Below the pieces are notes generated by a model that saw only the letters and a program-made list of their open reading frames with translations, was not told the DNA's origin and searched no databases. From Pseudogymnoascus verrucosus (lineage: Eukaryota): a stretch of 64,000 nucleotides of DNA. The position numbers and the translations under genes were made by a program. Below are positions 21,780 through 51,377 of the stretch, piece by piece. Location of the stretch: assembly GCA_001662655.1 (NCBI GenBank), contig KV460224.1. One strand, given 5' to 3'. Position 1 is the first letter of the stretch. Each line of letters starts with the position of its first letter.

Positions 21780-23227
21780 ATCCATATTTTGCAACTATAT
21801 TTTATACAAGGGAGAACTACCCTTTAATTAACTTAGGATCTTTACATTTTACTCTTTTATAATCAGTGTTCGGCACAGATCGCCAATGACCTAATCTGAT
21901 CCGGATCATGATCCAGATCAGACCTATCCGGCGTCTTTATGATCTATTCGTAGGATCTGAGGATATATCCGGATCATGCCAAGAGTAAGCCAAGAGTGCC
22001 AAGGCCACAGTAGTTGTAGAATTAAATCTGTAATACACCATTTAAATATTATAGGAAAGTGACGATTCCTATAAAAATGAGCGACTCTAAGTTATCAGAT
22101 TTACTAAAGAAGTTAAACAGAATTAAGTAAAGCAGTAGTTCTATGATGTCTTTACTTAATATAGAGGCCGCTAATACTATCCTAAAGAAGAGAAGAAGGA
22201 CGCTAAGGCTAATTTACTACAATTACCTATAGAACCTAACTCTAACGATGATTTATATATCTCCTATAGTATTTACTAAGAACTAGAATGGAAGCGCTAG
22301 CTTGTTAAGCCCTAGCTAGGTCTAGTAATAGATATTCTTAAATATTAGGCAGCAAAGCAATATTAGTATCTAATTATAGCTGCAATTGCTTAAGACCACT
22401 TAGCGATTCCTATAACATTAGCTCCATCTAAACAGGTATTTAGTAATAGAGCTGATATTCTTACGAAAAAGAGGAATAGGCTCTTACCTAAAACGCTTTA
22501 GTATTTACTTTGCTTATAAGATTAGGGTTATATACTAGAAGGGGGCGAAACTAAGGCCGAAGACGCTAATGACGAGAGGGAATATTAGTTATATAGCTAC
22601 TCTATTCTATTCTATTTATATATTTTAAGCCTCATTATCCTTAAGATCTAGATACAACCTATATCTATCCGTTAGACGTCTAATAGATCATGATCTATCT
22701 ATAGGGGCCACAGATTAGATCTAGATACAGGTTGCCAAACACTGTTTATAATTATACTTCTAACTAAACTTTGCTTTAAGTTCTATATAACACTTAATAA
22801 AGGTAGTAGTCTAGTTTATCTTAATAAGGCTTATACCTTGTTTAGAGAGTAAAAGGTCTACTATTTCTTATATGCTTTATAGCTAAGGTAGAAATCTATA
22901 TAAATCTAAGTTAAGGATGTACTAAACAAGAGCTAACTCTTTATATAGAGTCAACTTATATAAGTTAGAGGTAAAGTTACGTTATAAAGCTTTTCTATTT
23001 AACTAGTTATAAAGAGTTGTATATAGAACATTATACAACATTACACTTACTTAAATACTTTGAAATTAGCCTTATTTAATTACATTAATAGCTAATAGTA
23101 TTTAACCCTCTTAATTAGAGGATTAGGCTTATGTTAGTTATAGCATTTTTACATTTGTTAAGCTAATGCATTTTAGTGTTGTTAGTAATTGCTTTGCCTA
23201 TATAATCACTTTGCCTATAAAATACGT
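21780..23227 (-). mobile_element. Heavily RIP-mutated 5' half of a Fot1/Pot2 element, interrupted by a hAT derivative
   Basis: Aligns to about 2246-2803 with C>T/G>A changes; ends aaatacgt followed by TA. Confidence 0.85.
21864..22744 (+). mobile_element. Non-autonomous hAT element (881 bp, internally deleted)
   Basis: TIR cagtgttcggca / tgccaaacactg; 8-bp TSD TTTATAAT (21856-21863, 22745-22752); RIP-decayed hAT dimerisation motif AAIA.DHLAIP.T.AP...VFSN.ADILTKKRNRL at about 22380-22530; gatc-rich subterminal repeats. Confidence 0.92.
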
Positions 23228-23929
23228 TAATCTTAATTAGTCTTATTAAACAACTTTTATATCTATAAGATAAATATACTATAGTAACTTATTTCTTCTA
23301 TTAAAATGCTAACTATAAGCTAAAGACCCTTAAAGTAATTATTAAGGGTCTAATTCTACAATTAGTTAATTAATAGGAGTATCTTAAAGAATCTTTAAGA
23401 CACTATTATAACACTAGGTCTTAAACTATAAGACTTATAAAGGTTTTATTATATTAGTTTACTTAATAAAGGAGATAGGGGATTAGATATAAAGGCTTTT
23501 ATAAAACATATTACTAGTATATAATAAATACTATATTAAGTTAAGTATAAAGCTCCTATCTAAGAACTATCTATCTACTTATATAGTAGCGTTATACTAA
23601 AGGGAATAGTTAGAATAGTAGACTCTCTAACTATTCTTATAATTCCTACTAATCTAAATTATATATATATCCTATAAGAGGTACTATACTTATTATAGGT
23701 ACTAATTCCTATAGGTGCCTTTCTTAATAAGTACCTTCCTCTAGCTAAGTGCCTTCTTAAGAAGGTACCTTTTCCTAAAGGTACCCCTTCTAACTAAGCT
23801 ACTTATATATTATAGCTAAAACATATAACCTATATGCTATAAGAAAGAGTAATAAGGTAAAATAGCTTATAGCTAATTAGTAGTAGGAAATAGACATAGA
23901 GATTATAAGTAGCTTAGTTAATAAGGGTA

Positions 23930-25770
23930 ACGTATTTCCCGGGCGAGCTGGTCACCCGGGCGAGCTGGTCACCAAAACACACTAAAACGCGTCAACTCAA
24001 CTACAGACAACATGGCACAACCAACACAAGCCCAACCCTCTAATCAAGAGGGTAGAATTATTCTTGCTATTAAAGCAATTAAAGAAGGCAATATTAAGAG
24101 TATTCGAGCTGCTGCAATGTCATACGATGTCCCATTTGAATCGCTACGTACGCGACTTAACGGTGTTACTTCTCGACGCGACTCTACCCCTAACTCACGA
24201 AAATTAACTCCGTACGAAGAGTCAGCTCTTGTTCAGTATATCCTCGACCTAGACGCACGTGGATTTCCACCCCGGCCGCAAGCTGTACAAGAAATGGCAG
24301 ACCTACTACTCTCTGAACGAGGCAAGAGTCCTGTTGGGAAGAACTGGGCTACAAGCTTTATAACGCGTCGTACGGAAATCAAATCAAAGTTTAGTCGGAA
24401 GTATGATTATAAACGAGCAAAATGCGAAGATCCTAAGATAATTCAAGGGTGGTTCTCTCTCGTACGAAATACAGTCGCAAAATACGGCATCTTAGAGCAG
24501 GATATCTACAACTTTGATGAAGCAGGTTTCGCAATGGGAGTTATTGCTACTACAAAGGTAGTTACAAGCTCAGAAGCAAAGAGCCGTCCGAAGACTATAC
24601 AGCCAGGGAATAGAGAGTGGGTGTCAATTATCCAAGGTGTTAATTCGTACGGATGGGCACTCCCGCCGTTCATCATTTTCAAGGCACAGAATCACCTCTC
24701 TGCTTGGTATGAGGACTCGGGATTGCCAGACGATTGGGTGATTACACTAAGTGAGAATGGGTGGACTTCAAATTCAATTGGGTACGAGTGGATTCAACAC
24801 TTCAATCAGCATACAAATCCTCGTACGGTTGGAACCTATCGCCTTCTTATTCTTGATGGACATGAGAGCCACCTCTCTGCCCAATTTCAACACTACTGCA
24901 CAGAACAGAAGATAATTACCCTCTGTATGCCACCACACTCCTCGCACATTCTTCAGCCTCTTGATGTTAGCTGCTTTGCTCCGCTAAAGCTTTCGTACGG
25001 AAAGCAGATTGAAACCTTTGTACGGAACCGGCTAAACCACATTACAAAGCTTGAGTTTCTCTCTGCATTTAAAGAAGCATTTAAAGCTACATTTACAGAG
25101 CAGAACATTAAGAGCGGATTCCGAGCTGCAGGACTAGTTCCGTACGAGCCACAGAGTGTCCTCTCTCACTTGAATCTACGCTTAAGGACTCCAACTCCTC
25201 CTATAGTTGAGAGTAGCAATTGGACTTCAAAGACTCCTCAAACTATAAGGGAGCTTAACTTTCAAACAGAGCACATTAAGAACCGCATCGTACGACATCA
25301 GAACAGCTCTCCTACCTCAATTAATGATGCTGTTAGCTGCCTTGTTAAAGGGGCAGAAATGATGATGCATTCTGCTATTCTACTTAAGGCAGAAGTTAAG
25401 GCTCTACAAGCAGTAAATGAACAGAAAAAGAGGAGGGAAAGGAAGCGTAAGAGGCGTATAATGCAAGGGGGAAGCCTCTCCGTACGAGATGCAGAGGATA
25501 TCCTTCAAAGTGCCGAAGTTGATGCTCAAGTCCGTACGGAGGTAGCAAGTGAGAGTAGTCGGCAGGTGGGCTCTAAGGGCCGACAGAAGCGCTGTGGCCG
25601 ATGTGAGAAAATAGGACATAATACCCGTACGTGCGAGAGGCGCTAGGAATTAATTACGATCGAATAAGGGTTATTATGTAGGGTGGTGGTGTAGTAGTAG
25701 GCAGTAATAGTCAATTTTAGTGTTTTGGTGACCAGCTCGCCCGGGTGACCAGCTCGCCCGGGAAATACGT
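23930..25770 (+). mobile_element. Intact Fot1/Pot2-type DNA transposon
   Basis: Perfect TIRs acgtatttcccgggcgagctggtcacccgggcgagctggtcaccaaaacac; TA TSD (23928-23929, 25771-25772); uninterrupted ORF. Confidence 0.97.
24012..25646 (+). CDS. Fot1/Pot2 transposase, 544 aa
   Basis: HTH-psq N-terminus, YNFDEAGF, LILDGHESH, LQPLDVSCF, C-terminal CGRCEKIGHNTRTC. Confidence 0.96.
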   Translation: MAQPTQAQPSNQEGRIILAIKAIKEGNIKSIRAAAMSYDVPFESLRTRLNGVTSRRDSTPNSRKLTPYEESALVQYILDLDARGFPPRPQAVQEMADLLLSERGKSPVGKNWATSFITRRTEIKSKFSRKYDYKRAKCEDPKIIQGWFSLVRNTVAKYGILEQDIYNFDEAGFAMGVIATTKVVTSSEAKSRPKTIQPGNREWVSIIQGVNSYGWALPPFIIFKAQNHLSAWYEDSGLPDDWVITLSENGWTSNSIGYEWIQHFNQHTNPRTVGTYRLLILDGHESHLSAQFQHYCTEQKIITLCMPPHSSHILQPLDVSCFAPLKLSYGKQIETFVRNRLNHITKLEFLSAFKEAFKATFTEQNIKSGFRAAGLVPYEPQSVLSHLNLRLRTPTPPIVESSNWTSKTPQTIRELNFQTEHIKNRIVRHQNSSPTSINDAVSCLVKGAEMMMHSAILLKAEVKALQAVNEQKKRRERKRKRRIMQGGSLSVRDAEDILQSAEVDAQVRTEVASESSRQVGSKGRQKRCGRCEKIGHNTRTCERR

Positions 25771-26195
25771 TACCTTTAGGAAAAGGTACCTTTTATAGAA
25801 GGTACCTACTAAAAGAGAGGTGCCTATTAGGAAAGGCACTTATATAGAGCAAGGTGCCTCCTTAAGAAAGCACCTATAAGAATTAGTACCTATAATAAGT
25901 ATAGCACCTCTTATAGGATATATATGTAATTTAGATTAGTAGGAATAGTAAGAATAGTTAGAGAGTCTACTATTCTAACTATTCCCTTTAGTATAACACT
26001 ACTATATAAGTAGATAGTTATTCCTTAGATAGAAGCTTTATACTTAACTTAATATAGTATTTGTTATATACTATAATGTATTTTACAAAAGCCTTTTATA
26101 TCTAATCCCCTACCTCCTCTATTAAGTAAACTAATATAATAAAACCTCTATAAGTCTTATAGTTTAAGACCTAGCATTATAGCTATAAGTTATAA

Positions 26196-26755
26196 CTATG
26201 TTTTATATAAGGAAGAACTACCCTTTAATTATCTTTAGATCTTTATATTTTACTTACTTATAATTATACTTCTAACTAAATTTTACTTTAATTTCTATAT
26301 AACACTTAATAAAGGTAGTAGTCTAGTTTATCTTAATAGAGCTCTTATCTTATTTAGAGAGTAGTAAGTCTACTATTTCTTATATAGCTTATAGCTAGAG
26401 TAGAAATCTATATAAATTTAAGTTAAGGATATACTAAATAAGAGCTAACTCTTTATATAGGGTTAACTTCTATAAGTTAGAGGTAAAGTTATGTTAAGAA
26501 GTCATTCTATTTATTCTATTATTAAGGGTCCTTTATAGTATGTTATATAATAATGTAGTAGCTTAAATACTTTTAAATTAATGTTTATTTAGTACTTAAA
26601 TAACTAGAAGTAATCTATCCTCTAAGTTATAGGATTTAGCTTATGTTAGTTATAGCATTATTAATAGTAGTCTAGTTAATACATTTTAGTGTTTTAGTGT
26701 TTTAGTGTTTTAGTAGGTAACTTATCTATATAGGCAACTTATATATAAAATACAA
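26196..26755 (-). mobile_element. Heavily RIP-mutated 5' fragment of a fourth Fot1/Pot2 copy
   Basis: Aligns to about 2260-2803 with extensive transitions; decayed TIR at about 26700-26755. Confidence 0.8.
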
Positions 26756-27709
26756 TAATATGTTTTATAAAAGCCTTTATATCTAATCCCCTACCTCCTC
26801 TAATAAGTAAACTATATAATAAAACCTCTATATATTCTATTATTTTAGAATATAGCTAGAAGGACGTAGGGTACTAGCTTATAAATAATAGTATATAGGA
26901 GTGTAAGTTAGATAGGTTATAGTATAATTCTATAGGTCTACTATAAAGGATATAAAAAAGATAAGGAGGAAACTCCCTATGTAACGTTCCTTAAATACCT
27001 AAAACCTCCCTTAACTCAACTAACCCCCTATGTGCCTAAGGTTTCCTTATGCTATGTGCCTAAGGTTCGCAGTCGCGATCTAAACACAACGGCCCTAAGT
27101 CTCGAGGGCGCCACGTGATGACCGTAACCGACCTGAAGGAGGCATCCTTGCATTAAGTCTATAGTCGTATGTAACAGTTATCCTCATGTCGAATACTATA
27201 TACAATCTTATCATTCCTAAGTGATTCTCTAGTGGGCGAACATTATCATTTCGGAATCGGAAAGAAGGCTTCATCATAGTATAGAATATCACGTAGATAC
27301 AATAATCAATGAATATATGACCTACTTGTCGGCCTTCCGAAGAGCCCTCCGAGATACTGAAGCCCGAAGGATGACAACTCTTTAGGGCACAAGTAGCTTT
27401 TCATTGTAAATTGCACACGATGTGACTTGGGGGATTCCAAGGATTGTATAGGATATTAGTAAGTGTTCATCCTGAAGGATTCTTAGTAATCGCTCTTGGC
27501 ATTTTCTGAAGTATCTTTACATATAATTTACTATGTAAATGTACCTATTATGGCGATATCTCATCCTACCATAACTCTCGCCGAGCTCATCATTGCTCCT
27601 CCAGTCTATTTAAACAGCGCCAAATAACCCCTCTAGATATTCCATGGCTCATAGTAACAACTCAATATACTCCACACATATAGTAACAACTCAATATACT
27701 CCGCACATC

Positions 27710-28642
27710 ATGTCTACTCAAGCACGCAAAGCAAATGCCAATCTTGACCTTACTGGCAAATCCGCCGTCATCGCTGGTGGATCACAAGGAATCGGAGCAG
27801 GCATCGCCATCCGCTTTGCCCAGGCAGGTGCAAATGTGCTCATCGTTGGACGTAACAAAGAGCGACTCCAAGCGGTTATTTCAGAAGCTCGCAAAGTCGC
27901 CAAGTCCACTGAGCAGAAGCTCGATTATCTGTCCGCAGACCTGAGCCTTGTATCAGAAATCAAGGCTGTGGCCAAAGAAATTGAGGCAAAGACCGGTAGC
28001 CATGTTGATTATCTGATTCAAACCCAAGGTGGCATGCCGAATGGCCTTTTTGAGACTACCTCTGAAGGAATCGAGGTGCACTTCGCCGTCCAAATCCTGA
28101 ACCGTTTCCTCCTGAACTACCTACTTGCAACCTCCGGTGCTTTAAAAGACACATCCATCGCCATCGTGGGTCCCGGAAGCACTCAGACTGAATTCAAGCT
28201 CGACGACATCGAGCTCGCGAGCGCCAAAGACGAGAACCGCTACTCACAGATAGCAAAGCACGCCGCACGCGATTCCGTGGTCACAGACACCTTCACCAAA
28301 TCGCTACAGACTCACTTTCCACAGCTCAAGTTCTTCCATCTCGCCCCCGGCTTCGTGCAGACAGATGTCATGACCAACCAAGACGTGCCGACGCCGATAC
28401 GGTTGGCGATTAACTATATCGTGTTCCCACTCGCTGCGAGGTCGTTTGGCAATACGACGACGAGCTATGCTGATATTCCTGTGTTTTTGGCGGCAAATGA
28501 GGGGAGGGATGCTGTGGTTGAGGCGGAGGGGTATTTTTTGAATGAGAAGAATAAGAGGGTGGAGCTGAATCTGTATGCGACGGAGGAGAAGAACCAGGAG
28601 GCGATGTTTGAGAAGCTGAAGGGGTATTTGGATGGTCGCTGA
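27710..28642 (+). CDS. Short-chain dehydrogenase/reductase, intronless
   Basis: VIAGGSQGIGAGIA Rossmann motif, ADLS, HLAPGFVQT; alternative upstream ATG at 27644. Confidence 0.85.
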   Translation: MSTQARKANANLDLTGKSAVIAGGSQGIGAGIAIRFAQAGANVLIVGRNKERLQAVISEARKVAKSTEQKLDYLSADLSLVSEIKAVAKEIEAKTGSHVDYLIQTQGGMPNGLFETTSEGIEVHFAVQILNRFLLNYLLATSGALKDTSIAIVGPGSTQTEFKLDDIELASAKDENRYSQIAKHAARDSVVTDTFTKSLQTHFPQLKFFHLAPGFVQTDVMTNQDVPTPIRLAINYIVFPLAARSFGNTTTSYADIPVFLAANEGRDAVVEAEGYFLNEKNKRVELNLYATEEKNQEAMFEKLKGYLDGR

Positions 28643-31669: not shown

Positions 31670-32209
31670 ATGACAATGCCGTCGCAGCAACAAAACAACA
31701 AATACCCAGGCAGTAATGCCCCATATATCGCGGGTCTCAGTACTGGGTATGTGTATACATCCCCCATCCTCTCGTGAAGTTCGCTGGTGCAAATGTGATA
31801 CTTGTTGCTCTCCACATCACGTGATCGCCATTACCACCCACCCCTGTCACCGCCCCCCCCCCCAAAGTCCCCAAAGTACCCCCTCACACCCAGCCTGCGC
31901 CCATACGTGTGTACCAATCTAACTGAACCTCCCTCCAGCTTCTCCCTCGACACACTAGCCACTGCTCCTCTCGGCCCCACGTACGACCGTCTTGCTGAGT
32001 GGGCGGACAACACCTCAACACGCGATAATCCGGTCACGGATTTTCTGTTCGAGATTGTCCCTGTTGAGAATCCGACTGAGAAGGGGACTTCTGGGAAAAA
32101 ATCGACCCAGAAGAAGTCGACCAACAAGAAATCGACTCAGAGGCAGGACGCGGCTCACAATAAATCGACTGAGAAGAAGCCGACTCAGAAAAAACAGAAG
32201 ACGAAATGA
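31670..32209 (+). CDS. Small hypothetical protein with Lys-rich (KKST) tail, two exons
   Basis: MTMPSQQQNNKYPGSNAPYIAGLSTG|FSLDTLATAPLGPTYDRLAEW..; intron about 31747-31938 (gtatgt..ccag) keeps the frame. Confidence 0.5.
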
Positions 32210-33182
32210 CGACGCGTCGAAGAGCGCGTTGTGGGACGAACGGCGGCGGGCTTGGGTTTCCACGTGTGTGATTTGGGACGTCTCTTGTCTTGGTGCCTTA
32301 GATGGAATTTGGACGGTGATGTGTTATTTCTGGGCGGTGTGTCGCAGGGTGTGTCGCGTGGAGTGAGGGGGAATGCCGGGATGCCTGGTCTGTTCTATTC
32401 CTTAATAAGAAAATATTGTCCTCTCAGCTCTGCCCGATTAGCCAATGCTAAGTCCGTGCTAGAGAAACTGCATCTTGTTACTGTATACATGGTTTTATGC
32501 GTAGAATCGGAGTGCTTTGCCTATTGGCGCAAGTACTAGGTACATGTGTAAGCATATATTCTCGACGAATCGATACCGAGTCCTTCATGGAAGAGACCTG
32601 AGACCCCTAAGGATAGTCGACGCTTAACCAAAACCACCATAGCGCGAGTCTAAGGGAGCGGCACGGAGCCGTCGCCGGAGAACTCCCGTCGCCGCGAGAC
32701 ATTAAGGCAACCACAAGTAGAAGTGGCGAGTGCCAACAAATCGCCAATTAGACAAGCTCAATTCCGCCACTGGGAAGGCTGTCGTACCTGCCTCTTTGAG
32801 TCGTGGGTGCACGTGCAGTAGTATTATGACATGAATTTATAAGATCTAAGTTATGGGTCGTACTTGTGATATCGTGATATCGTGAGGTACGGCTTAGAAA
32901 AGACCCACCCACTACTTCTAGCTTTGGAGATCAGGGACTACTAAGCGGGGACAGCGGAGACAGCGGAGACAACGCGGCAATCCGTCAGGTTACGCGCTCA
33001 AGATAAATGGGCCGCGGCGCTAATACGCGCTAATTGACTCTAGTTAGTCTAGTCTTTGTCACCACATTGTTCCGTTCCCACATCATGTCTTGAAACACAG
33101 CTTCATCGCCATTGATTTCCACGCCGCAACCCATTCAAATTACCTCCCCTTTTTGTCTACCTATAATTCGTTCTCTTCTTCA

Positions 33183-34286
33183 ATGTCCCAAGTTAGCCCT
33201 CCTCTCCAAATCGCAGTGTACATCGCGGCACATGGATTTGGACATTTCACCCGCACACTCAATCTTCTCTCTCTCTTATCACATTCTAAGAAGTACAACT
33301 TTCACATTCGCACCTCATCATCACTACACACGGAACCACTAGCATACGCTTTACACCCCAGCATCGTCCAAACAAATCCCTACCAGCTAGACGCGGAACA
33401 GTCACTCCACTCTCTCGCCAACTTTGACCCCTCCCTCCCGCTAGCAGAAGAGACCAAGTTCCTAAAAGAGCACAACATCCAAGCCATCATCGCAGATGCC
33501 CACTCCCTACCATGTCTGCTTGCACAGACCGTTGGAATCTCGTCAATCCTCATCACCAACTTCACTTTCGACAGCATATTCCAAGCTATCCTAGATAGTG
33601 ACCCAACATGCACGAACAAGGCGGCGCTCCAGCTGAAAATCGACGAGATGACGCATCAGTACGCACTTGCGCACTCCGTTATTCGATTACCAGGACACAT
33701 CTCCTTCCCCTTCTCCGGCCCGCAAATAATAGACGCACCAATGCACTCCAGGAAAGCGCTGCAGACTCGGAGCGAGACGTTGGCTGGGCTAGGGCTGCAG
33801 TGTCTGGAGAGTAAGAAGATCTTGCTCAACTGTTTCGGCGGGCATAATTCAGATTCCCTTTCTGGGGTTCCAAAGTTGCCAGAGGGGTGGGCGTGCATCA
33901 GCCAGACGATCCATTCTCCGCCGCTCTTCTATAAGATCTCGCATAATGTGTATATGCCTGATCTCATTGGGGCGTGTGATGTTGTGCTTGGGAAGCTTGG
34001 GTGGGGGACGTGCAGTGAGGTCATTGGGAATGGGTATAAGCCATTTATTTATGTCCCGCGGAGTGCTTTTATTGAGGAGGCTGGCTTGCTGAGGTGGATG
34101 GAGAGCGCGCATCGAAGGATTGTGAGGCTAGAAGTGGATGAGTATGAGAGCATGGACTGGCGGGGGGCGATTGGAGAGGCGGAGAAGGTGGTCACTTCAA
34201 GTTCTGTGTCTGCGAAGAATTGGGAGAAGGATGATGCGGAGTTGGTTCGGATTTTTGTAGACGCATTAGAAGGTGCATTGAATTGA
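33183..34286 (+). CDS. GT-B fold glycosyltransferase-like protein resembling the L-arabinokinase N-terminal domain; intronless
   Basis: YIAAHGFGHFTR, ITNFTFDSI, YMPDLIGACDVVLGKLGWGTCSE, FIYVPRSAFIEEAGL. Confidence 0.8.
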   Translation: MSQVSPPLQIAVYIAAHGFGHFTRTLNLLSLLSHSKKYNFHIRTSSSLHTEPLAYALHPSIVQTNPYQLDAEQSLHSLANFDPSLPLAEETKFLKEHNIQAIIADAHSLPCLLAQTVGISSILITNFTFDSIFQAILDSDPTCTNKAALQLKIDEMTHQYALAHSVIRLPGHISFPFSGPQIIDAPMHSRKALQTRSETLAGLGLQCLESKKILLNCFGGHNSDSLSGVPKLPEGWACISQTIHSPPLFYKISHNVYMPDLIGACDVVLGKLGWGTCSEVIGNGYKPFIYVPRSAFIEEAGLLRWMESAHRRIVRLEVDEYESMDWRGAIGEAEKVVTSSSVSAKNWEKDDAELVRIFVDALEGALN

Positions 34287-34487
34287 ATTGTACGTGAACA
34301 GCGCCCTTTGTAAGAAAAGTAGTCCAGGCCGTGAATTCATCTTGTAGGTAGGTGGTACTGAAGAACAAACGGAACAAACAGAACAATCAATAAAAATAAA
34401 ACCGTCGTTCTCATGTTGAGATGGAAGGTGCCATTTTCAAATGCAGTAGCACTGGATACGCTGCTGCATGAATGCGCAACATGAGTA

Positions 34488-36672
34488 TCAGTCATCCTCA
34501 AACAAAATAACCACTGCCTTGAGAAGTGGCTTGAATACCCGCTTATCATTTTGATCCCTGGATATGAAGTTCACCATTGGAACTATAGCTTCTTCTATAG
34601 TAGCACCCATGGGCAGCTCTCCTCGTGGATGTATAAAAAATGCAGCTTCGACGCAAAGCTGTATTGCACGTCCTTGATGGCTTTGAGTAATATCCATCGA
34701 GCCATCCATAGCTTCGACTTTCATAGTAGTTTCGTCAAACTTGGTACCAGGAACGTATGTGAGCAATTCGTAGTTCTCAATGTTAAGGCACAACTCCACC
34801 TTGGTTGTCAGGGCAGCAGTAAATATAGCGACGAAGCTACGTCGTCTCTCTTTCCATTGTTCAAGCCCTTCGCCCCATGTGGAGAATCCGTCCCAATCCA
34901 GTAGCGGTGAATCGTCTTCCGTATCTGAGAAGAAGGGTGCAAGGGCGTTGGAAAGTTGAATGGCCAAGGTTTCAGCTTGTTGTGGAATAAACTCTTCGAG
35001 AAACTCTTTCGATTTGACGCATTTGCTCAGAGCAGCAAGATCCCAGTTTCGCAAGGTTACTGCCCCATCTAAAAGAAGAGAAAAGTCAGCATTTGATACA
35101 GGAACTTAGGCTTGGAGTCTATAACCATACCACGATTCCCCCTGAGACATTCGCGATAATATTGTAAACCTCTTCCAGCTTCAAATATTGGGATGTCAGA
35201 CTCAAAAACCCACTCGCGCACGGCTGCACCCGTCAAAGCTCGCATGGCTGGCTGAATACTCAGTTTAGACAGTAGGCGCCTGGCTTTATCCAGCAAATAA
35301 GTCCCAGAGTCATGGAGTCCCAAGACCTTGCAAACAAGTACGCGGAGTGTCTCATGTTGACCTAGTGATTGTATGAAAGGGGTTTTGATATTTCCGTAAG
35401 GACAAAAGGTTTGCTGTGTCAACCAGAAAACTTTCCTGATGCCGGTTTCGAGTTGCTCTGTCGTGGACCTGCGGCTAGATGTTGACGATAGCTGGGTGAA
35501 TGTCCCAAGAAAGTTCTGAGACCGAATCTGCCTGTGTAATGCTTTACGAACTTGATGGTGATGGGTTGATAGGTCGTCGGAGGACCAATCGTGGTGTTTG
35601 GTCAGTTCTCGTTGTACATCTAATAGAAGGTCATTGTCGGTTTTGAGACTTGCGATTGTTTCTGTTTGTTCGTGCTCGTTGACTCTGTGCTCAGCGAGCT
35701 GACTTCGAAGGGAGTAGATTTCATGGTTTGCCCCATCTAGCTGTGTCTGAAGCTGTACCATTGACTTATCAACAGAGGCATCTGTCTGTGTTGAAGCACT
35801 TTGTTCTTGATCTTGTGCCACCATATGCGTACATCGCGTGCATGAGAACTTCACGCAGGCACTGTGCTGCCAGACTTTACATTTTTCGCAAGAAATCCAG
35901 TGTTCAGGCTGTAGTCCTTCTTCGGTAGCGCCGCATTCACAGTCGATTCTTTCTACCTCGGCATCGGCAAGCTTGCGACTTTTGCGACGAACACGCGTGC
36001 TTGCTCTAAGCCTTTTGTATAATGGATGTTTTGGTTTACCCAGTCGTGGGGTCGCTGGGCTGGCGGGGAATTGTTGTGCATCACTCTGCTGTTGTTGCGA
36101 ATTAGCAAAGAGAAAGGGTGATGGCCAGAAATACATACACGCTTCCTTGGCGGTGTTTGGGATCTCTCAACATTGTAAGCTTGAACTGCGGGGATAAGCA
36201 CATTATTGCTCTTTTGACTCTTTGAAAGGCTTAGGTCAACTGGGTTTGCATTGTTGGAACGTAGCGCACGCGGTTTTGTAAGCTCTGGCTGTGCTGTTCC
36301 AAGTTTGGATCCCCAGCTTGCTGGTACCGAGCCGAACAGCGAGGCGACGCGCCCCTGAAGATCTCGTAGCGGATTCGATAATGGCGAGAAAGTCGTGGAA
36401 TTCATTGTAGAGGTAGCGTTGCTAACAGACAGAAACTGACGTTCCTCTTTAATGACTTGCAATTCGACGCTCGGCGAGAGTTCGCGCTGCTGCGAGGCGG
36501 CCGGACTGTCACGCACCCCCCTCGACTGAGGGAAGACGCAGTTGCTACCACGTTTTACGCAACGATTGCACGCTGGGGAAACTCTATCGCATTTTTGTTT
36601 CGCCCTGCGACATTCTTTGCATGGCAAATTAACAAGAAGTTTGGGCTGGGATCGAGAGTTTGTGGAAGACAT
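34488..36672 (-). CDS. ~690-aa Zn2Cys6 + PHD finger + coiled coil + putative GrpE-like C-terminal domain protein (exons 36672-36139, 36088-35131, 35068-34488)
   Basis: CKECRRAKQKCDRVSPACNRCVKRGSNC; IDCECG..WISCEKCKVWQHSACV; heptads LQTQLDGANHEIYSLRSQL; both introns have canonical donors, branch sites and acceptors, and phases (0 and 1) join the three ORFs in frame. Confidence 0.8.
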
Positions 36673-37466
36673 TATGTGCCTTTGGTAGCTGTGTGGTCGT
36701 ATCAATGTAGTATGCTCGACCTTAAAATGACCTTGCTCTCCAATATTGAGACTAGTGAAGTCGCAGTGTTCTCTTTTTAGTTATTGGCAAACAGTAGAGA
36801 TAAAGAATCAAATTTAATGACTTTACTTCGCTATTTGAGATTGGTAGCGCACACGTAGTCGTTGGGATGTATGTTGTATTAGCAGCACATAAAAGCGATA
36901 ATCTAGGAGGCATAAATACTCGGCGGCTAACTAGGACATACTAAGAGAAATCTAAGACATAGGGGAGAGTAGTTGCAGGGGGCATGTAGGCTGCCACCAC
37001 TAATATCATCAAGTTCACCACCATCAACCAAATGAATCACTTGTACATACATAGGTATTTTTGAAATGAGCATATATAATCATTTCTAATACCGGTGTGT
37101 GTCATCAGAGCTGTTCTATGTCCATCTATTCCTATCTTGTTCTACAGTATGTGACAAGTCATCCAACCCCTTGAATATCGTTTCTGCCTATCCACATCAT
37201 CTCTAACCTATAGCTCATACTTATTAAACTACGGCTTGCCCGTCCTCCTTCCAGCTCATCATTCTCAAATAATAGCCTGCATATCACATCGCCCATGCTT
37301 ATTCATTCCACAACTTTTCGTCAGCTTGCATCCACACCCACGCGGAACATACACGTCCAGGCGCGCACACACGCGCACGCACGCACACTGGCACACACAC
37401 TCGCACACACACATAACCACTGCAAAATCCTTCGCAACAACCGCCTTTTTGGACACCTTGAAGCCA

Positions 37467-39984
37467 ATGAGCGATGATGATCAAGCTAGAGATGTATATA
37501 TGAGCAGAGTTCAAGAAGAAGCACATTATCTCATGTTGTCTACTGGCACGATGCCTCGCAAAGAAAGGAAACCAATACGTCGCCGCAAACCTACAGCGAG
37601 GAAAACTGCAGTGAGGAGTATATTCAGTAAGCCAGAGCGGAATGCATCGAGCCTTGAATATGACTCCGAAGATTCAGAGATAGAGGCAGCCGCACAAGGG
37701 AAAGGGTATGGATCTCACTGTATCACCTCCGCAGAAGCTAATGAGAATAGTGCTCGCTACATTGCCGCAACTGATTTCGGAGCGACGTATACTGCCATTT
37801 CGCTCCTACGTGTCGACGAGAATGGAAATGCAGACCCAAATATAATACCCATCTCAAATTACCCAGACGACCCGAGGACTGTGATGGGCGAATCAAGTAT
37901 TCAAGTTCCAACTCAGATTGGATATTGCGACAACGACCTAGAAGAACAGCTATCCGTCGAACCGGATTCTAGGACGTACGATGCCCTTCTTCAGTCTGAC
38001 TCTGACGAGTACCAAGTGTCGAAGTCCAGATGGTACAAATCTAAGCTTCGGGAGACCAAGAAGAACCAGAAGACTACAATTTGGGGATTCGAAGTCCAGA
38101 ATAAGCTCAACCCAGAGATGGATAGTGCCAAGGTAAACCTTATTTCTGGGTTTAAGCTTTTATTAGACAGGAGCGAAGATACAAAGTCGGAACGAGAGTA
38201 TATTTGCAATACCATGGAACAGTTACAACGCCGAAAACTCATCGCAAAAGATGAGAACATTATCGCCACTTTTTTGACGCACTTATTTCTACATGCAAAA
38301 CAACAGTCGAGAGATGTGCATGGGATCCCTGCTTCAGCTTGTATTGAGCATGCCCTTAGTGTTCCCATATTATGGGATGCTTATTCCCGACTACTGTTTC
38401 AAAATGCTATACAAATAGCAATTGAAGCCTCGGGGTTTGGTACTATGGAAAATTTGTTCTTTGTCTCTGAGCCCGAGGGAGCCTTGACCTACGTACTGTC
38501 ATCATCGTCGGATTACAGGGTACGTAATAGCATTCATAAATACAAGCAGCTACTAAGAAATTGAATCATAGCCTGGAGATAAGGTTTTGAACCTTGACCT
38601 TGGTGGCATAACTGTAGATGCTGGAATTTTTGAAGTCAAGCACGACTTCCCCTTGAGACTCGGTGATGAACCCCTTGTTACACCAGAAGGTAATTTTAAT
38701 CCGCTTTTAAAGTAGCAAAGATACTAACATGATTTAGGGCCCTTGCATGGATCAAGCTTCCTTAACAGCGATTTTCGGAAGCACCTTGAGAAACGCTTAG
38801 AAGACGATATTGAACCTGTAGAGAGAAACGGGCGTAAATTTCAAGACGTCCTCGATGAATCCACCTGGGAGTTTGAGAGGAATATTAAACGAAATGTGGA
38901 CTTTTATAAGCCACTGCCATTACGATACATCAAAGCTGACGGAATTAAAAAGGATCGTACGAAGCGATTCATAGATAATAATGTGATACTAGAACGGTAG
39001 GCCTCTATAATTTGGGATGAAGTAGGTGATGGGAGCTGATTTTGGTAGATCTGATCTTTATGATATATTTGAGCCTCGCTTGACAGGAATCAGGGCACTA
39101 ATACGACAACAACATATCGCTGCAAAACAGAAAGGGCATATCGTGGACAAAGTTGTCATGACCGGAGGTTTCTCAACATCAGAATCTATTCGGGGTCTTG
39201 TACGGATAGTCCTCAAGCAAATATCGGCAGAATTTGGCTATCCAGTTGCGTTAATGAACGATTGGAACAATACAGTACCGTAAGTCCCCCTTTTCAAAAC
39301 GTAATATCCCATTAAACTTATATATATGTGACAGTCCAGATTATATGTCACGCGGGGTAGCCCACCGGGCCTACCAGAAATACGGTGGCCCGTTAAGAAT
39401 ATCGGAACTCAGCTACGGGTTTGAGATAATGGAGACATATGATCCCGAAGTATTTGAAGCTCATAGAGGCATTACACCCCATGTGGACGAAACTGATGGT
39501 TGCAAGTACGTGAAAAATGTACTAGATTGGCCTCTTACCAAGGTATGCATTGTATCCATTTAAAGTCTAAGAAATCTACTTATCTCAGAAGGGTATTGAA
39601 CTTGGCGAACATGCAGAATACCCAGTTCCCCTTTATCACTATTTCAACGTAAGGAAGAAAACAGTCACATTCGAAGAAACACTCTATGTGTCCAACACAT
39701 GCACGGAATCGCATTACAGTAAGCACCATGAGATGAACAGGGGAAAGTTCCAAGTTGCAGGGGTAATCTCAGTCGACATGACCCCCCTTGCGACAAGCGG
39801 CAAACTAGAAATCGTGAAGAATAAAAAAACTAGGCAATCCTTTTACGTGGTCGAATTTGACCTTGTTATAATTGTTAACAGCCGTGGGTTAACATACGAG
39901 GCCCGTTATCCAAGAAAAAGTAAAGTCAGCTGGGGCCAAAGCCAGAGTTGCATCGCAGCCGCATTTAGGCCTGGAACAATGTGA
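37467..39984 (+). CDS. Divergent Hsp70-family (HSPA12-like) actin-fold ATPase, multi-exon
   Basis: Phosphate-1 IAATDFGATYT, GFKLLL, LSVPILW, VSEPEGAL, phosphate-2 LNLDLGGITVD (exon from 38572), GSSFLN, adenosine motif VVMTGGFSTS; about five GT-AG introns. Confidence 0.85.
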
Positions 39985-40543
39985 CAGAACTAGCTTCTCT
40001 ACCCCGCAATAGGATATGGAATTTCTTGGAAGTTTGGAATGTGGTAGGGCGAGTAGACTGTTTCATTATACTCGAGTAGAGATGACCGGCGGTTTACTTT
40101 GGTGATCGAATGATGGTGGTGGGACGAAGAATTTTCGGATTGGAAATGTCATGCAGGATACAGTGTTGGATCGGACAATAGCAAGGTGGTGTTTAATATT
40201 TCACATAGTGTATTGCTTGAAATTAGGTTTTAATTGGCGTATTTTGATTGCAGCGATATCACAGTGGAATAGTCAGTATCTACCTGCATAAATGTATGTG
40301 AGGAAGCTATTGGTTTTGTCACGCACGACATCGTTGACATCAGCCCCCTCAAAAAAAGGTGGCAGAAACACAACTATCATATCGCACATCTGCATCTCCT
40401 TGTCCTCTACAACAAATATCACTTCGCCTTATCAAATGAGTGTGTGTTTACATGAGGCATAATTAGGTCATAAAATAGTAATGATTACACCATAGGAAAC
40501 CCTACAATCAGGAAATCGGGATAAGTGTACCTATAGTGTTTCC

Positions 40544-41899
40544 CTAACTAGACGAACGGGGCAAGGTCAGTTGAGTAATCCACCTCGAAATATACTCCAC
40601 CACATCTCCATCGACGTGGCCCCCTACCACATTATATTCATCCGGCGATGACATCCCCTTCCCCTTCCGAAACATATGGTTCATATCATCGTAAACTTTG
40701 AACTCTATCCCCATAATTTCATCCAATCCTTTCTTCCAGCCCTCAAAGTCGTCCTTTAGCGTAACCTGATAGTCCCTTCCTCCTTGCATTATCAACATTG
40801 GCTTCCCCAACCCTGCGGCGGTGGAGACAGGATTATAATTCCTAATATCAAGCCAATATGATGCAGGCACTGCGAAAGGAAGTTTCGATGTCGGCGTCGA
40901 GAGACTGAGGGTAGGACTTTCAACAAGCTCAGCTTGTTTTGCTGCGGCGTCTAGAACGGCCTCCGAAACATGGTACGTCTTATCCTTCAACGTATTAATG
41001 TACTTCATTTGCCGAATCGCAGATCTCTGCAATGCCTCCGTCAATCCAGCGAGTATCACAAGTCCCGCGATTGAAGGCTCCTCCTTTCCAACACGTGGAG
41101 CAATACAACCACCGAGGCTGTGCCCAAGTATAAAGACTGGCAATCCCGCGACCTCAGATCGCGAGCGCAAAAGCGCGATGGCCGCGCGAGCGTGGTATAT
41201 GTACTCGTCTTCTAGTGTAATATTCTCACTGAGTCTTTCTGCGTGCGCAAAAGCTGCCTTGTCGAAACGTACGCTGGCTATGCCTTTTGATGCCAGACCC
41301 CATGCCAGATCCTTGAAGGGTTTAAGTTGCCCCACTGAGGAGTTGCGGTCAGCAGCGCCAGAACCTTGGAGCATTATAATCGCTGCGCATGGGCTGTGAG
41401 GGAGGACGAGGCTTGCGGGGACATCGCGATCGTCGGCTCCGAGCGTAACTTCTGACTCCTCAAACAACGACTCATCAACATAATCCGGCGGCGACCAAGG
41501 CACATTGGAGTGGTCAGGGACTGCGCGGATGGATGTCACGTAGCCACTAGTGCTGATACGGACGACCACTTTTACAGCAATCTTTTCGAGAACGAGCGGG
41601 AAGCGCACGATTGTCACGTCACCGCTCTTGGTAACCTCGCCTTCCCCAACGGATACCACTTTGCCCTGTGAATCGAGTACAGATTTCCATGATGTTTCCA
41701 GCTTATTAGTCGACAGGAGCCAGCGAATGCGACGGGTTAAGAGATTGCGCAGGTCTTGGTAGGAGCCTGCTTCAAGAAGTTCGACAATTTTCTTGCCGAC
41801 CGTGGAGGGGTTGTCTAGGGTCCATTGTATTTTAGGCTCCTTTCCTATGACAGCGTCGACGAGAGACTGGAGTAGCGATGCGACTTTGGAGAAGGCCAT
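40544..41899 (-). CDS. Alpha/beta hydrolase with N-terminal DUF3887-like domain; intronless
   Basis: QGSGAADRN, FKDLAWGLASKGIASVRFDK, GHSLG nucleophile, QGGRDYQV, MNHMF. Confidence 0.85.
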   Translation of the reverse strand: MAFSKVASLLQSLVDAVIGKEPKIQWTLDNPSTVGKKIVELLEAGSYQDLRNLLTRRIRWLLSTNKLETSWKSVLDSQGKVVSVGEGEVTKSGDVTIVRFPLVLEKIAVKVVVRISTSGYVTSIRAVPDHSNVPWSPPDYVDESLFEESEVTLGADDRDVPASLVLPHSPCAAIIMLQGSGAADRNSSVGQLKPFKDLAWGLASKGIASVRFDKAAFAHAERLSENITLEDEYIYHARAAIALLRSRSEVAGLPVFILGHSLGGCIAPRVGKEEPSIAGLVILAGLTEALQRSAIRQMKYINTLKDKTYHVSEAVLDAAAKQAELVESPTLSLSTPTSKLPFAVPASYWLDIRNYNPVSTAAGLGKPMLIMQGGRDYQVTLKDDFEGWKKGLDEIMGIEFKVYDDMNHMFRKGKGMSSPDEYNVVGGHVDGDVVEYISRWITQLTLPRSSS

Positions 41900-43286
41900 A
41901 GCAGCGGATTAGTTGGAACTTTGGGACACAGCAAGAAAATGTTATTGTTTGGGGTTACGAGGGCTTTTGCACTGAGATGCACGACTCTGACAGAGGGCCA
42001 CGCGGAAGAGCAACGGCTTTGTCAGTTAAACGTTTCGGATGAAACGGAATGCCTCTACAGCGTCCTTGTAACAGCTGATCAGACAGGGATTAGGCAGCAA
42101 CAAATGGCTATGGTCTTAGTTTAGCTTGACGTTAGTTGTCTTGCGGCGCAGCAAGGGAAGATGCATCACAATTTGGAGAGGCGGATAAATTGCGTGGCCA
42201 ATTGTTGCCAAGCCTAAACCGGGATGTGGAGCGAAAGGTTATTTTGACCCTCCTGAATCCAACATACAACTACGGCCCGCGGCGGCGTTTGTGAGGCGGG
42301 GTAAACCGATGATTATGGATGTGTGACTACTCTGATGTTAGATCCAATGCTATCTATCCCCCGCAATAAAGGGTCCAATTTTAATGTGGAGGTGGGGGTA
42401 CGATGGCAAAGTGGACCAAGTCTGGAATCAGGATGCATACCGTTCTGGCTAGTCTTCACAGTCCAGCCGCCTGACAAATATCTGGAACTATGAGGCACCG
42501 CAACTTGTCTCCGAGGAAGGGGGCGGCAAAGATGCGACAAAGTAAATTTGATGGCGCCTATTACAAAAATAAGGTTCAAGATACCCTCATATCCAGACAC
42601 CCGGTCCGGATAAATCCTTCGTATGCATCATACCATGCAATAGAAAAATACCAGCTTCGTATAATTTAGTCATTCATTTTATCATATCATCGACAATGCT
42701 TGTTTTACCCATGGCCATTTAGCTGCGGATCCTCCAAGTCTTCGGATCTCTAAACCATTTCCGGTGGCAACGCACATCTCTTACCTGCTACAACAGGAAC
42801 CAAAAACAACTACAATGCTTCCCTAAACCATTTTAAACTTAAGGTCAATATCTGTTGCCAAATTACTTCGTCAAATTATATGCTGTTATGAGGTAGTTAG
42901 AGGTGGTTACGAGAATGAGCAGTTTCGATAACTAGGTCTGAATCCTATGACCTCATTCCAACGTCGTTAAATAGCTTCTGGTTAATTCTAAAGGTGCTTT
43001 AACTGACTCCATTGCCATTTTGGTCAATTATATGGGGAGATCATTGATGTTCACTTGTATGGAGATGCTAGATCAAAGCCAAGGAATCTAATCCTTTTCA
43101 AACATACATTAATACCATTTTTTTTTAGGAGATGCTATGCTCTAGGAGGAATATAGCCGTCAAAAGGTACATATACTTCTCTCTCTCACATCCATCTCTA
43201 TCTTTTCTATATTGACATGACTTTCAGCCTGAATAATATTCATCTTCTAAAGTATCAATTCAATTCTCCACAGCGTCAACGCTAAT

Positions 43287-47536: not shown

Positions 47537-49297
47537 TCAGCCCGTCGTAGGATTCAAAGGAAATCTGACGCAGCCTTCAAATTTATCCCAATCGAAAAAA
47601 AACAATTCCTTCAAATCGCCATCCCTAAGATTCCTGCAGTCTGACTTGTGGTCCTTCTCGTTCCAACCTCTGATTCGGCACGTCTGATTATAATAAGATT
47701 AGCGTACGAAAGAGCAAACGATAGACTCCCAACTTACTACTTCGCAGTACCAGAAGAGCGAGCACTTGGTACACTTCTTCAACGACGCTGCTTGCTTACC
47801 GCACCCATGGCATGTTCTCAGCCCGTTTCTCTTCACTGAGTATTTTTGGACCCGATCGCTCAATGCTAAGATGTCACGTAGCATCATAGGGAATATCTAG
47901 TAGAACACGCTGTGTTAGAAACTGTGCTAGGTTTCTGGTGATTATCGTACCTTCAAATTCGAGGACTCCTTAAGACAGATCGCCGGATCAGAATGCATAA
48001 ACCCGCGACGATTTGCGTACAAAGTGGCAACTGTACACCCTGTGTCGACTTCTGAAGGCACAAATTCGCTCCCGGCCCCATCCGTATGAAAGATGAGCGG
48101 AATCGATACGCCGGTAATATCTTGGATATCCACCTGGAAACGGGTCTCGGTGTAGATGTCGATAATCTCAGCGAGCAATAACCAGTGCCGACGTGGTTGA
48201 TGGGTTGTCGCATCACTGCTTGAGTAGAACTCGGTGGTGATGTACTTGTCATCGGGCAAGCCATAAACGTGTGGGAATGTCGTCTGGTTGCGGAGATCTG
48301 CAACTTGTCCAGGTCGCTTTGGCTTCTCTCTCCTCCATAGCCAGTTGTCAAACTGCGTCGGATCAAGTCCGGAAGGAACATCATCCACGGCAGTTTTCCA
48401 CTGCATTGAACGTCCGTATAATCCGTGTTTTGAGGGATCCTTCAACAGAGCTTTGTTTTCAAGAACATTGGGGCCGTCGTTGCCTCCAAGAACAGCCCAC
48501 CCAAGCATCGCCTTCTGTGCAAAAATACCTACTCTAGCTAGATCCCCATTGACGACAGTAATTTTTACTACGTCTAGGAACGCCCTTGGCAAACCAGAAT
48601 CGTTAGGCCCATGTTCATTGTAAAGGGTTACCTGACGATCAACATGTCGAAGTTTTTGCGACGAGCCTGCCGATATCCCCATCAAGCCATCTCTGCCAAT
48701 GAGGTGATCTAGCACGAGAATCTCGTTGAGCCTTATATCGCTCTCTCGGCTTTGATCGGGTGGCAACGAGCAAAGACGACATGCGCAGGTAAACGCGAAT
48801 TTTCTTTGAAGCTCCTCTTGGCGAGCTTCACGGTTGTTGGTGACGCCGAGATAGTAAATTGTGATCTCCTCGCCCTTTTCTAAGTTTCGCAATGCATGGA
48901 CGGTGTGTCGCTTGATGTTCTCGTTCCAGCATTTTTGAGCGTTGTTGTCGCAGGCGTGGTTGATGCGACATGCATCAAGGAAAATACCGGCATTGTCCTG
49001 CCCAAATGGGAGGGCGTTTGTCCTCATGATACCAAGATATTTTGAGGCAGAGTCATCGGCGTAGATATTATGCATGGAAAGAAAGGCTTGGCGTTGGTTT
49101 GGAGTAAGAGCATCGACTTGCAAGCGTACGTATGATCGGAGAGTTTCGCAGTGGGGCAGATTTTCTGGGATCCTGAGAATGGGCTCTTCTGAGAGAATCC
49201 GTGTGCCCATGGGGATATCTCGGGTAGCGACAAGCCCCTTTCCTTTACCAGGAACATCTTGGATGGTGTACATCGGTTCAGTTGTTAGAGTCGACAT
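47537..49297 (-). CDS. SET-domain lysine methyltransferase with C-terminal MYND finger (SMYD/Set5-like)
   Basis: GKGKGLVATRDI, RINHACDNNA, GEEITIYY, FTCACRLC, CHGCGK..CTKCSLFWYC..HKSDC; two 3' introns. Confidence 0.85.
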
Positions 49298-50056
49298 GTT
49301 TGTGTTGTCGTTGTTCCTCAGTTAGCTGAATTCAATGTTCAGGTGGAAATGGCCTCGCGACTACTTACCAGCTCCAGTTAATCATTTGAAAAATCTGGAA
49401 AGGTTCGAAAGAATTGGTATTTGAAGGATTTGGAAAGGTTCAAAAGAATTTGGGGGTCGTTGGGGTTTGAAAGAGTTGAGAACAATTTTGAATGGTTCGG
49501 ATTTGTTTTTTTGAATGGCAGATCACACGGCAAACGAATTGCAAACGGGTTCCGGACTCTCAATTAGCACTATATTTCCTTTAAATTATATATGTATTCA
49601 AAGCCTGGCATTTAAGCACCTGTAAAACACACTCAACAATACGATTAGGTGAAATTTGGTGAAATATAAACAGTAGATCGAACTCATTGTACAGGGTGAA
49701 GCATTCCATCATGCGCCTCAGTTAAAACGGCATACGGAGCCCACAAACATACCACATACAATCAAGGCACTTCTGAGGTTTGGTTACATACCGCGTAGTT
49801 GGAACACACATCATGTAACAGTTTTATTCATTTAGAAACATCAACTGCTGGATTTTTTTCATTGACTGAATGCTACCCTTCCATCCATGTCCACCATTTC
49901 ATCTCCAAGCAGCTTTTCTGATAATACGACTACAAGGATGCAATCAAATATGCCCATGCGTATGACGAGGCGTAGACGGACCATCTCCAACTCCAACTTT
50001 GTGATCCATCTACTCCTGTTGCGGCCAGACCATCCATCCTGAAATACATATAATCC

Positions 50057-51377
50057 TTACATCCTATGCTTCCTGCATCGCCTGCAAGCCACAATATAAC
50101 ACTGCTTGCATTCTTGAATGAACCTAGTAATCATCAATTGGCCGCATATTTCGCAGTATCCGGGACCCTGGATATAACGCCAGTCAAGATGCTGACATTC
50201 GTGGTTCTCTCGAAGATTCTGAATTGTGCGTTTGAACGACTCGAATCTCTCGCGCAGTCGCAATCCACGAGTCGCTTGTCGACGAGCTACAAGCACGTTT
50301 GCATGCTCAATGAGTCGATGTTCGTCCCATTGCGCGCAGGTGCAGACTTTCCATCTCAGCCCGCAGAGGTAGCAGAATTCAGTGCCACAACGACAGCTAT
50401 TATAGTGTTAGCATTTGAGGTCTCTGTGGGGTGTGATTGGGAACTTACGTGATATGGTTGCAGCCATAGTTCAGTTCCACCACACTCGAACACATGTAGC
50501 ATCGTTGCCAGCCATTCTCTCTCACCATTTGCAAGATCTGCTCAAACTCTGGATCACTGGGGCATTCTCCGTTGCCATGAGCGGCTTCTTTGCACAGTGT
50601 GCATGTCTTTGAGTCGCATTTGAGACATGTAGCCACGTTGTTGGCAATGTTGGCGAGTTTGATAAACGCTGAACAGGTCTGTACAGAGCAATACGTTTTG
50701 TTCGGAGTCTCATACTCGACCCTTTTGTCGATAAAAGCATCGACCAGGTCGGAAGTCAGGAGTGTGTGGATTGCCTCCAAAGCAATTGGTTGGCGACAGC
50801 AACGTGGCGGAAAGAGGGATTGGTCTGTAATCGCCGCCGTGACAAGGTCCTGGAGACAATCGCGACAGTACTCATGGCCGCATGGACCACATCCAAGTTC
50901 CTCAAGTGTCTTCTCATCACCGCATGCTTCACAAAGATCTGTGTCATAATTGACCGTTACGGGTGTGAAGAGGCTTTTAAGCTTTGACAGTATCCGACGC
51001 CCCAGGGAAGCCTTGAAATCCTTGGAATATGGTAGTCCGGCATGTTCTTTGGGAGTTTGGGCGAGATCGTGATCTCCACCAGCAATGCTTGCCTGTGAAG
51101 TTGTGTTCAGAACAGTCGGCACGTGACTTTGGGCATAATCCGAACTTTGAGCCATGCTCCCATTTGAGAAAGATAGATCGTCATTTTCCAGCTCTTGCTG
51201 TTGCAGCTGCAAGGCGTGTGATTCGTCGGTGAATTCTCCACTGCGACCCTTCCCCGCCGCCGAGGACCCGCTCAACCCCAGATATCGGAGCTGTAGCTTG
51301 GCGATGAGATCCGCTGTCCCATCGTCGATATCGTCGAGACGATCGCTGAGAGGATCGCCGACGCTGAGATAAGCCAT
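50057..51377 (-). CDS. RBR (RING-IBR-RING, Ariadne-like) E3 ubiquitin ligase
   Basis: CEAC..CGHEYCRDC..FPPRCC, YCSVQTC..CLKC..CTLC..H, WQRCYMC..GCNHIT|CRC..FCYLCG; intron about 50396-50448. Confidence 0.87.

Follow-up and report, generated by a model that had tools for sequence, protein, structure and literature searches.

The window analysed here, a stretch of 64,000 nucleotides from contig KV460224.1 of Pseudogymnoascus verrucosus (assembly GCA_001662655.1), contains at positions 34,488–39,984 two genes transcribed head to head, one encoding an HSPA12-type ATPase of the Hsp70 superfamily, and the other a zinc-finger protein (hereafter, the partner) whose C-terminal module is predicted to fold like GrpE. 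The pair is one copy of a two-gene module conserved in filamentous ascomycetes, and we estimate at roughly even odds (about 0.5) that the two products form a dedicated ATPase-cofactor unit. Both genes are intact and spliced, and they lie exactly where an earlier reading of the letters alone (the sequence-only reading) had placed them; the exons could be read without interruption, and the divergent interval, put beforehand at about 800 bp, measures 794 bp.

The strongest result is the linkage of the two genes. To survey it, we started from the ATPase side, searching metagenome contigs of the Joint Genome Institute (JGI) with an alignment of the ATPase family, which yielded 54 loci at 24–50% identity, and ran a hidden Markov model (HMM) of the module over the six-frame translations of these loci. 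The last exon of the module lay on the opposite strand, 1.9–3.3 kb upstream and with E-values from 1e-23 to 1e-74, in every one of the 19 loci whose upstream flank is 2.7 kb or longer. The other 35 loci, with 2.2 kb or less of upstream sequence, did not show it and are uninformative because their contigs are too short on that side. Some loci are near-duplicates (L029 = L030, L051 = L052, L021 ~ L022), and 16 distinct loci remain after their removal. The contigs carry no taxonomic label and are taken as fungal because their reading frames are split by introns and resemble named fungal proteins. One locus (L046, 353–12954) contains two complete head-to-head pairs in tandem; another contig carries two of the loci (L042 and L051) and, at L042:1–138, the 3' terminus of one more ATPase gene, so that at least three copies lie within about 50 kb of it.

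The annotated genomes agree with this picture. Consecutive accessions or locus tags were found in Xylogone sp. PMI_703 (KAH8816829/30), Aspergillus nanangensis (FE257_009718/19) and A. wentii (OJJ32936/37), as well as in two further Pseudogymnoascus strains (V502_00033/34 and V500_11253/54). Across 17 pairs (14 from metagenome loci, plus those of the window, strain VKM F-4518 and Xylogone), the lowest pairwise identity was 18% between modules and 26% between ATPases, and the identities of the two proteins were correlated (Spearman 0.47). The head-to-head pairing has persisted through very deep divergence, and the expectation that homologues would be adjacent in other fungal genomes was borne out in all 19 informative loci and in the annotated genomes of Xylogone, Aspergillus and Pseudogymnoascus. 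The N-terminal heads of the linked partners were likewise expected to vary, and they do: family members bear Zn2Cys6, PHD-like or C2H2 heads, or have no Zn2Cys6 cluster. No Zn2Cys6 cluster was found in the Xylogone partner, and among 40 open reading frame (ORF) pieces located between module and ATPase in the metagenome loci none matched Zn_clus, with a weak PHD signal in L006 and L016 only. Because the heads differ, the conserved core consists of the ATPase, the coiled coil and the GrpE-like module, and the Zn2Cys6-PHD head is a lineage-specific, local addition.

The membership of the plus-strand product in the Hsp70 superfamily is apparent from profiles. A profile built from 11 relatives matched 111 sequences of Hsp70/DnaK nucleotide-binding domains in the PDB at E ≤ 0.01 (best 3.4e-8), all matches ending inside that domain, and nine of the 11 relatives matched Pfam HSP70 (PF00012) at E ≤ 0.1 (best 5e-7). 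The exon pieces of the window gene and the orthologue P0004, each searched alone, gave no Pfam or PDB match. In the family alignment, DFG.T, SEPE (with its Glu), D.GG.T.D and GGF are conserved and a lysine, K212, is invariant; we take these motifs to be the phosphate- and adenosine-binding and catalytic Lys/Glu elements of the fold. Both phosphate loops are unusual in the Pseudogymnoascus copies, with A for T in one and I for G in the other. The nearest structural cluster in the Atlas carries the automatic name 'Heat shock 70 kDa protein 12A', at template-modelling (TM) scores of 0.60/0.68. The designation HSPA12-like, proposed from the letters alone, is accordingly secure at the level of the superfamily, by profile and by Pfam, whereas a closer affinity to HSPA12 itself is suggested by this one auto-named neighbour.

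For the partner, the key evidence is the predicted structure of its tail, the sequence of which is present exactly as it had been quoted beforehand. The model of the last 192 residues has a mean confidence (pLDDT) of 92.2, and in it a helix leads into a compact beta domain at the C-terminus that has the topology of GrpE. When it was compared by Foldseek with 350,542 PDB chains, no match reached E ≤ 0.001, yet six of the top eight were GrpE or GrpEL1 (9a81_A, 9bls_B, 9bls_C, 4ani_A, 9blt_B and 3a6m_A), with E 0.015 and probability 0.84 for 9a81_A. GrpE and GrpEL1 thus take most of the top places for the stretch of about 190 residues that had been singled out as GrpE-like, although the E-values exceed 0.001 and 1dkg_A, from the DnaK-GrpE complex, appears only at rank 31. 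In the VIA structural comparison of the beta part with 48,161 chains, GrpE entries were the only ones among the matches listed that covered this part, in all three lists. A Foldseek search with the full-length partner model returned helical noise only. The predicted fold of the module matches GrpE specifically, though with moderate scores.

By sequence, the tail is not GrpE-like. None of 68 module sequences matched Pfam GrpE (PF01025) at E ≤ 10, a profile search of the PDB with the module at E ≤ 10 gave six noise matches, none of them to GrpE, and a single-sequence search of the PDB with the partner retrieved no GrpE. Comparison by hhalign with an alignment of 31 diverse proteobacterial GrpE sequences, from which 80 loci with 86% or more identity to E. 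coli GrpE had been left out, gave a probability of about 1% and E-values of 0.05–0.07; against E. coli GrpE alone, there was no significant match. Hence, of the GrpE-like tail that had been postulated, the predicted fold stands and the sequence similarity does not. The correspondence that had been drawn between the motifs of the tail and those of the GrpE beta domain recurs in the best local hhalign alignment, which places PGTxFD on GexFDP and KAVVIL on RPAMVxV of GrpE, but this alignment is not significant.

The C-terminal module is a real and widespread family. When the last exon of the partner was used as an HMMER query against 1.84 billion representative proteins, 145 matches at E ≤ 1e-3 were obtained, 56 of them at E ≤ 1e-10. 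One of the matches, the Knl1 MELT-repeat protein P0084, was judged spurious and left out of the alignments. The named members come from Helotiales, Eurotiales, Onygenales and Dothideomycetes. Among the 48 longer proteins, two have Zn_clus domains, three have PHD-like fingers and 17 have C2H2 fingers, and none has an Hsp70 or GrpE domain. Members in Coccidioides immitis and C. posadasii (P0107 and P0174–P0178) are annotated as conserved hypothetical proteins. Within the one bacterial phylum searched, Pseudomonadota, none of 401 genomes contained a relative at the strict threshold of E ≤ 1e-12. The named Atlas clusters nearest to residues 420–689 of the annotated partner protein (P0001) are plant GIL1_IRKI_C (0.80) and animal MIEAP (0.77), both below the level at which matches were counted; the MIEAP cluster is commonest in Mollusca, whose bivalves also expand HSPA12, and plant DUF641 is weakly matched by one module protein (P0049, E 0.0032). 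These resemblances are a possible lead to a remote superfamily.

The N-terminal head of the partner corresponds only in part to what had been claimed. The Zn2Cys6 cluster was confirmed by a Pfam Zn_clus score of 34.7 bits, well above the cut-off (21 bits), with the cysteine spacing CX2CX6CX6CX2CX6C. The PHD finger is present as a set of Cys/His ligands with an atypically short last spacer, but its Pfam matches remain under the cut-offs, at 18.9 bits against 24 for PHD (PF00628) and 15.7 against 27 for PHD_5 (PF20826). The signal is equally weak in five relatives (P0014, P0035, P0087, L006 and L016), of which L006 reaches 26.7 against the PHD_5 cut-off of 27. In the AlphaFold2 (AF2) model, built with 147 family sequences, the partner is confidently helical from about residue 282, its helices continuing as far as residue 590, and has strands at 594–685; the coiled-coil helices match generic coiled coils only. 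The middle homology domain of fungal-specific transcription factors was not found in Pfam scans.

The gene models themselves are well supported, and the coordinates of the main features are listed in Table 1. The partner gene starts with the ATG at 36672 and comprises exon 1 (36672–36139), exon 2 (ending at 35131) and exon 3 (35068–34491), followed by the stop codon at 34490–34488. Its product is letter for letter P0001, the hypothetical protein V499_06591 of Pseudogymnoascus sp. VKM F-103 (689 residues; 100% identity over exon 3), including the junctions PPRKR|SDAQQ at intron 1 and GNR|DGAV at intron 2. The exons of the ATPase gene span 37467–38519, 38572–38689, 38738–38996, 39049–39279, 39335–39542 and 39589–39984 (ATG at 37467, stop codon at 39982–39984), and its introns, all GT..AG, are 46–55 nt long; for the two genes together, all seven introns have GT..AG ends and lengths of 46–62 nt. 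The ATPase-family HMM is matched unbroken over positions 45–731, with no stop codon or frameshift. CGG-pair motifs are not enriched in the interval between the genes (2, compared to a window mean of 4.8), which gives no sign of autoregulation. A CA/CG-rich simple tract, CACGCGCACGCACGCACAC... CACACACTCGCACACACACA, occupies 37330–37420, directly 5' of the ATPase start codon.

Table 1. Coordinates of the gene pair and its features within the window.
Feature	Position	Strand	Remarks
Partner gene (V499_06591)	34488..36672	-	3 exons, 689 aa; Zn2Cys6, PHD-like finger, coiled coil, conserved C-terminal module
Partner intron 1	36138-36089	-	GTATGT donor; tandem CAG/CAG acceptor; annotated protein uses 36086
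Partner intron 2	35130-35069	-	GTATGG...CTGAC...TAG
Zn2Cys6 binuclear cluster	36520..36624	-	residues 17-51; Pfam Zn_clus (PF00172), E 1.9e-8
PHD-like Cys/His finger	35840..35965 (approximate)	-	residues ~219-260; Pfam match below cut-off
Long coiled-coil helices	35495..35776	-	residues 282-341 and 347-375; AF2 model, pLDDT 73-95
Conserved fungal module	34491..35452	-	residues ~390-689, spans intron 2; no Pfam family
GrpE-like beta domain (predicted)	34491..34778	-	residues 594-689; carries PGTKFDETTM and KAVVIL
Divergent intergenic interval, presumed shared promoter	36673..37466	.	794 bp between both ATGs
HSPA12-type Hsp70-superfamily ATPase gene	37467..39984	+	6 exons, 754 aa; orthologues P0004, P0165
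Phosphate-1 loop (presumed role) ATDFGATYTA	37767..37796	+	family consensus DFGTTFSSV
Phosphate-2 loop (presumed role) LDLGGITVD	38593..38619	+	exon 2; family consensus LDAGGGTVD
Adenosine-binding motif (presumed role) VVMTGGFSTS	39152..39181	+	family alignment

The surroundings of the pair contain several mobile elements. ORFs for Tc5/pogo-type transposases (DDE_1 plus HTH_Tnp_Tc5) are located at 1514–2857 (minus strand, split) and 23931–25643 (plus strand, intact, 571 amino acids), and an ORF for a retro-element integrase at 14001–15896 (plus strand). Two AT-rich blocks, 22001–24000 and 26001–28000, with GC contents of 0.29 and 0.34, have the look of repeats degraded by repeat-induced point mutation (RIP). 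Directly downstream of the partner gene, an open frame of 412 amino acids (33048–34283, plus strand) had no Pfam match at E ≤ 0.001. About 8–11 kb downstream of the pair, there are ORFs with a SET domain (47945–49321, minus strand) and an IBR domain (RBR-type E3; 50448–51464, minus strand), which, together with the PHD-like finger of the partner, are neighbours of chromatin or ubiquitin type.

The locus may also differ between strains. Adjoining the pair, a DUF3887 plus Hydrolase_4 alpha/beta hydrolase (40547–41908, minus strand; P0003) shares 97% of its residues (433/447) with the N-terminal portion of V501_08025 from strain VKM F-4519. In that strain, the gene model runs from the hydrolase straight into a module only 51% identical to that of the window, with no ATPase between them, an arrangement that may reflect a deletion, an allele replacement or an erroneous gene model. 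In run X1, a 14.6-kb contig is collinear with 32019–43126 at about 97% identity, and a 40-kb contig has flanks about 84% identical to those of the window, with the flanking genes about 15 kb apart and nothing pair-like between them at an 80% identity threshold.

Several other explanations have to be weighed against a dedicated ATPase-cofactor unit. Compact fungal genomes contain many divergent gene pairs, so that the two genes might be unrelated neighbours, adjacent by chance or merely sharing a promoter. We consider this hardly credible because the arrangement recurs in every one of the 19 informative loci, as well as in annotated genomes, at 18–30% protein identity, where general synteny would not be expected to survive. 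The pair could also be truly functional with the partner acting as a dedicated client or adaptor of the ATPase, for example, a transcription factor that is held or released, in which case the resemblance to GrpE would be due to convergence or very remote ancestry. This alternative, the main rival, is rather unlikely, given that the fold matches are specific: GrpE entries take six of the eight top places among 350,542 chains and are the only matches listed for the beta part among 48,161 chains, and the conserved motifs of the module fall on equivalent GrpE positions, although in an alignment that is not significant.

A role in conflict or non-self recognition (allorecognition or a defence-like function), in which the ATPase would be the switch and the partner would serve as variable sensor or effector, seems improbable, although several observations would fit it. 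Transposons abound in the window (two Tc5/pogo DDE_1 ORFs, a retro-element integrase and AT-rich blocks), some genomes have several paralogous pairs (the tandem of L046 and the three or more ATPase copies of the L042/L051 contig), and the N-terminal heads vary. Moreover, the sister strain VKM F-4519 has a module of only 51% identity next to the 97% identical hydrolase, and the second run X1 contig, with its flanking genes about 15 kb apart, shows nothing pair-like at 80% identity. The divergence between strains is, however, deduced from one gene model without its DNA, and Pfam scans found no effector, HET, NACHT or toxin domain in either protein, whereas the zinc-finger heads indicate gene regulation. 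In PADLOC, the single, weak match (P0151 to the candidate system PDC-M61B, E 2.4e-4) covers 45 residues of a generic phosphate-2 loop, and NCBIfam gave only sub-threshold DnaK/HscA matches.

The analysis establishes the architecture, the predicted fold and the linkage, and from these we infer by analogy how the dedicated ATPase-cofactor unit might work with respect to dimerisation, binding and exchange. In the model, the partner would dimerise through its long helices, and its beta domain would dock on the nucleotide-binding domain of the ATPase, as GrpE does on DnaK. Docking might either tune the exchange of ADP for ATP or, alternatively, allow the nucleotide state of the ATPase to switch the variable N-terminal head of the partner. 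In P. verrucosus, this head combines a Zn2Cys6 cluster with a PHD-like finger, and therefore the output is likely to be transcriptional; the partner would then be a chaperone-gated or chaperone-recruiting transcription factor, with binding to DNA and chromatin as the switched activity. The Zn_clus, PHD-like and C2H2 heads among the 48 long module proteins support this DNA-binding theme. A bolder extension, which we put forward tentatively and regard as doubtful, is that the module marks out a large and so far unrecognised family of GrpE-like cofactors outside the organelles, private to HSPA12-type ATPases across filamentous fungi, in which each pair is an ATP-driven switch with its output set by an interchangeable head. 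Such a family may extend beyond fungi, as the weak Atlas leads to MIEAP and GIL1_IRKI_C hint. If this holds, the fast-diverging paralogous pairs would supply the fungus with chaperone-gated regulators or non-self sensors that work independently of one another.

Literature searches found no paper describing an Hsp70-type/GrpE-like pair in fungi, in line with the statement of the sequence-only reading that it knew of no characterised fungal system with this architecture. Among known proteins, the closest counterparts of the ATPase are probably vertebrate HSPA12A and HSPA12B and the fungal proteins annotated as 'HSPA12-like' or 'actin-like ATPase domain-containing', with which it shares a divergent Hsp70 nucleotide-binding domain with motifs of the SEPEAAA, DAGGGTVD and GGF types. 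HSPA12-type Hsp70s range from fungi to humans, with a massive expansion in bivalves, yet 'the function of HspA12 is presently unknown', according to the accessible part of a 2026 Hsp70 review, which names no cofactor there. In contrast to HSPA12A and HSPA12B, which have no described cofactor, the ATPase studied here has a dedicated conserved neighbour. A partner that is kept beside an HSPA12-type ATPase and has a predicted GrpE fold makes the question of HSPA12 function directly testable.

The closest systems for comparison are DnaK-GrpE and mitochondrial Hsp70 with Mge1/GrpEL1 (PF00012 plus PF01025; PDB 1DKG, 9BLS, 4ANI and 3A6M). The module differs from GrpE and GrpEL1 in having no detectable sequence similarity to them, and the partner differs in its size (3–4 times larger), in its additional helices and variable N-terminal heads, and in carrying a nuclear-type Zn2Cys6 head with no organellar context. 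The ATPase is of the HSPA12 rather than the DnaK type, and an exchange activity of the partner is a proposal by analogy. A passage of a 2025 review of GrpE-like factors describes the eukaryotic members as imported into mitochondria, and the terms 'HSPA12', 'fungi' and 'zinc finger' do not occur in its text. We read the pair as a non-organellar variation on the Hsp70-GrpE theme; a nuclear or cytosolic GrpE-like factor fused to DNA- or chromatin-reading fingers would, if confirmed, widen the GrpE-like family.

The partner also resembles the fungal transcription factors of the Gal4 type, which likewise begin with a Zn2Cys6 cluster followed by a coiled coil, but its C-terminal half is the GrpE-like module and no middle homology domain was found. 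In its proposed mode of working, it would join the transcription factors gated by an Hsp70 system, such as sigma32, which is controlled by DnaK/GrpE. The Hsf1-Hsp70 feedback offers the same likeness, a DNA-binding regulator coupled to the Hsp70 cycle, which is a likeness of mode rather than of family membership. In those systems, Hsf1 and sigma32 are clients of the general Hsp70, whereas the factor described here would itself bear a GrpE-like module and be served by a private ATPase.

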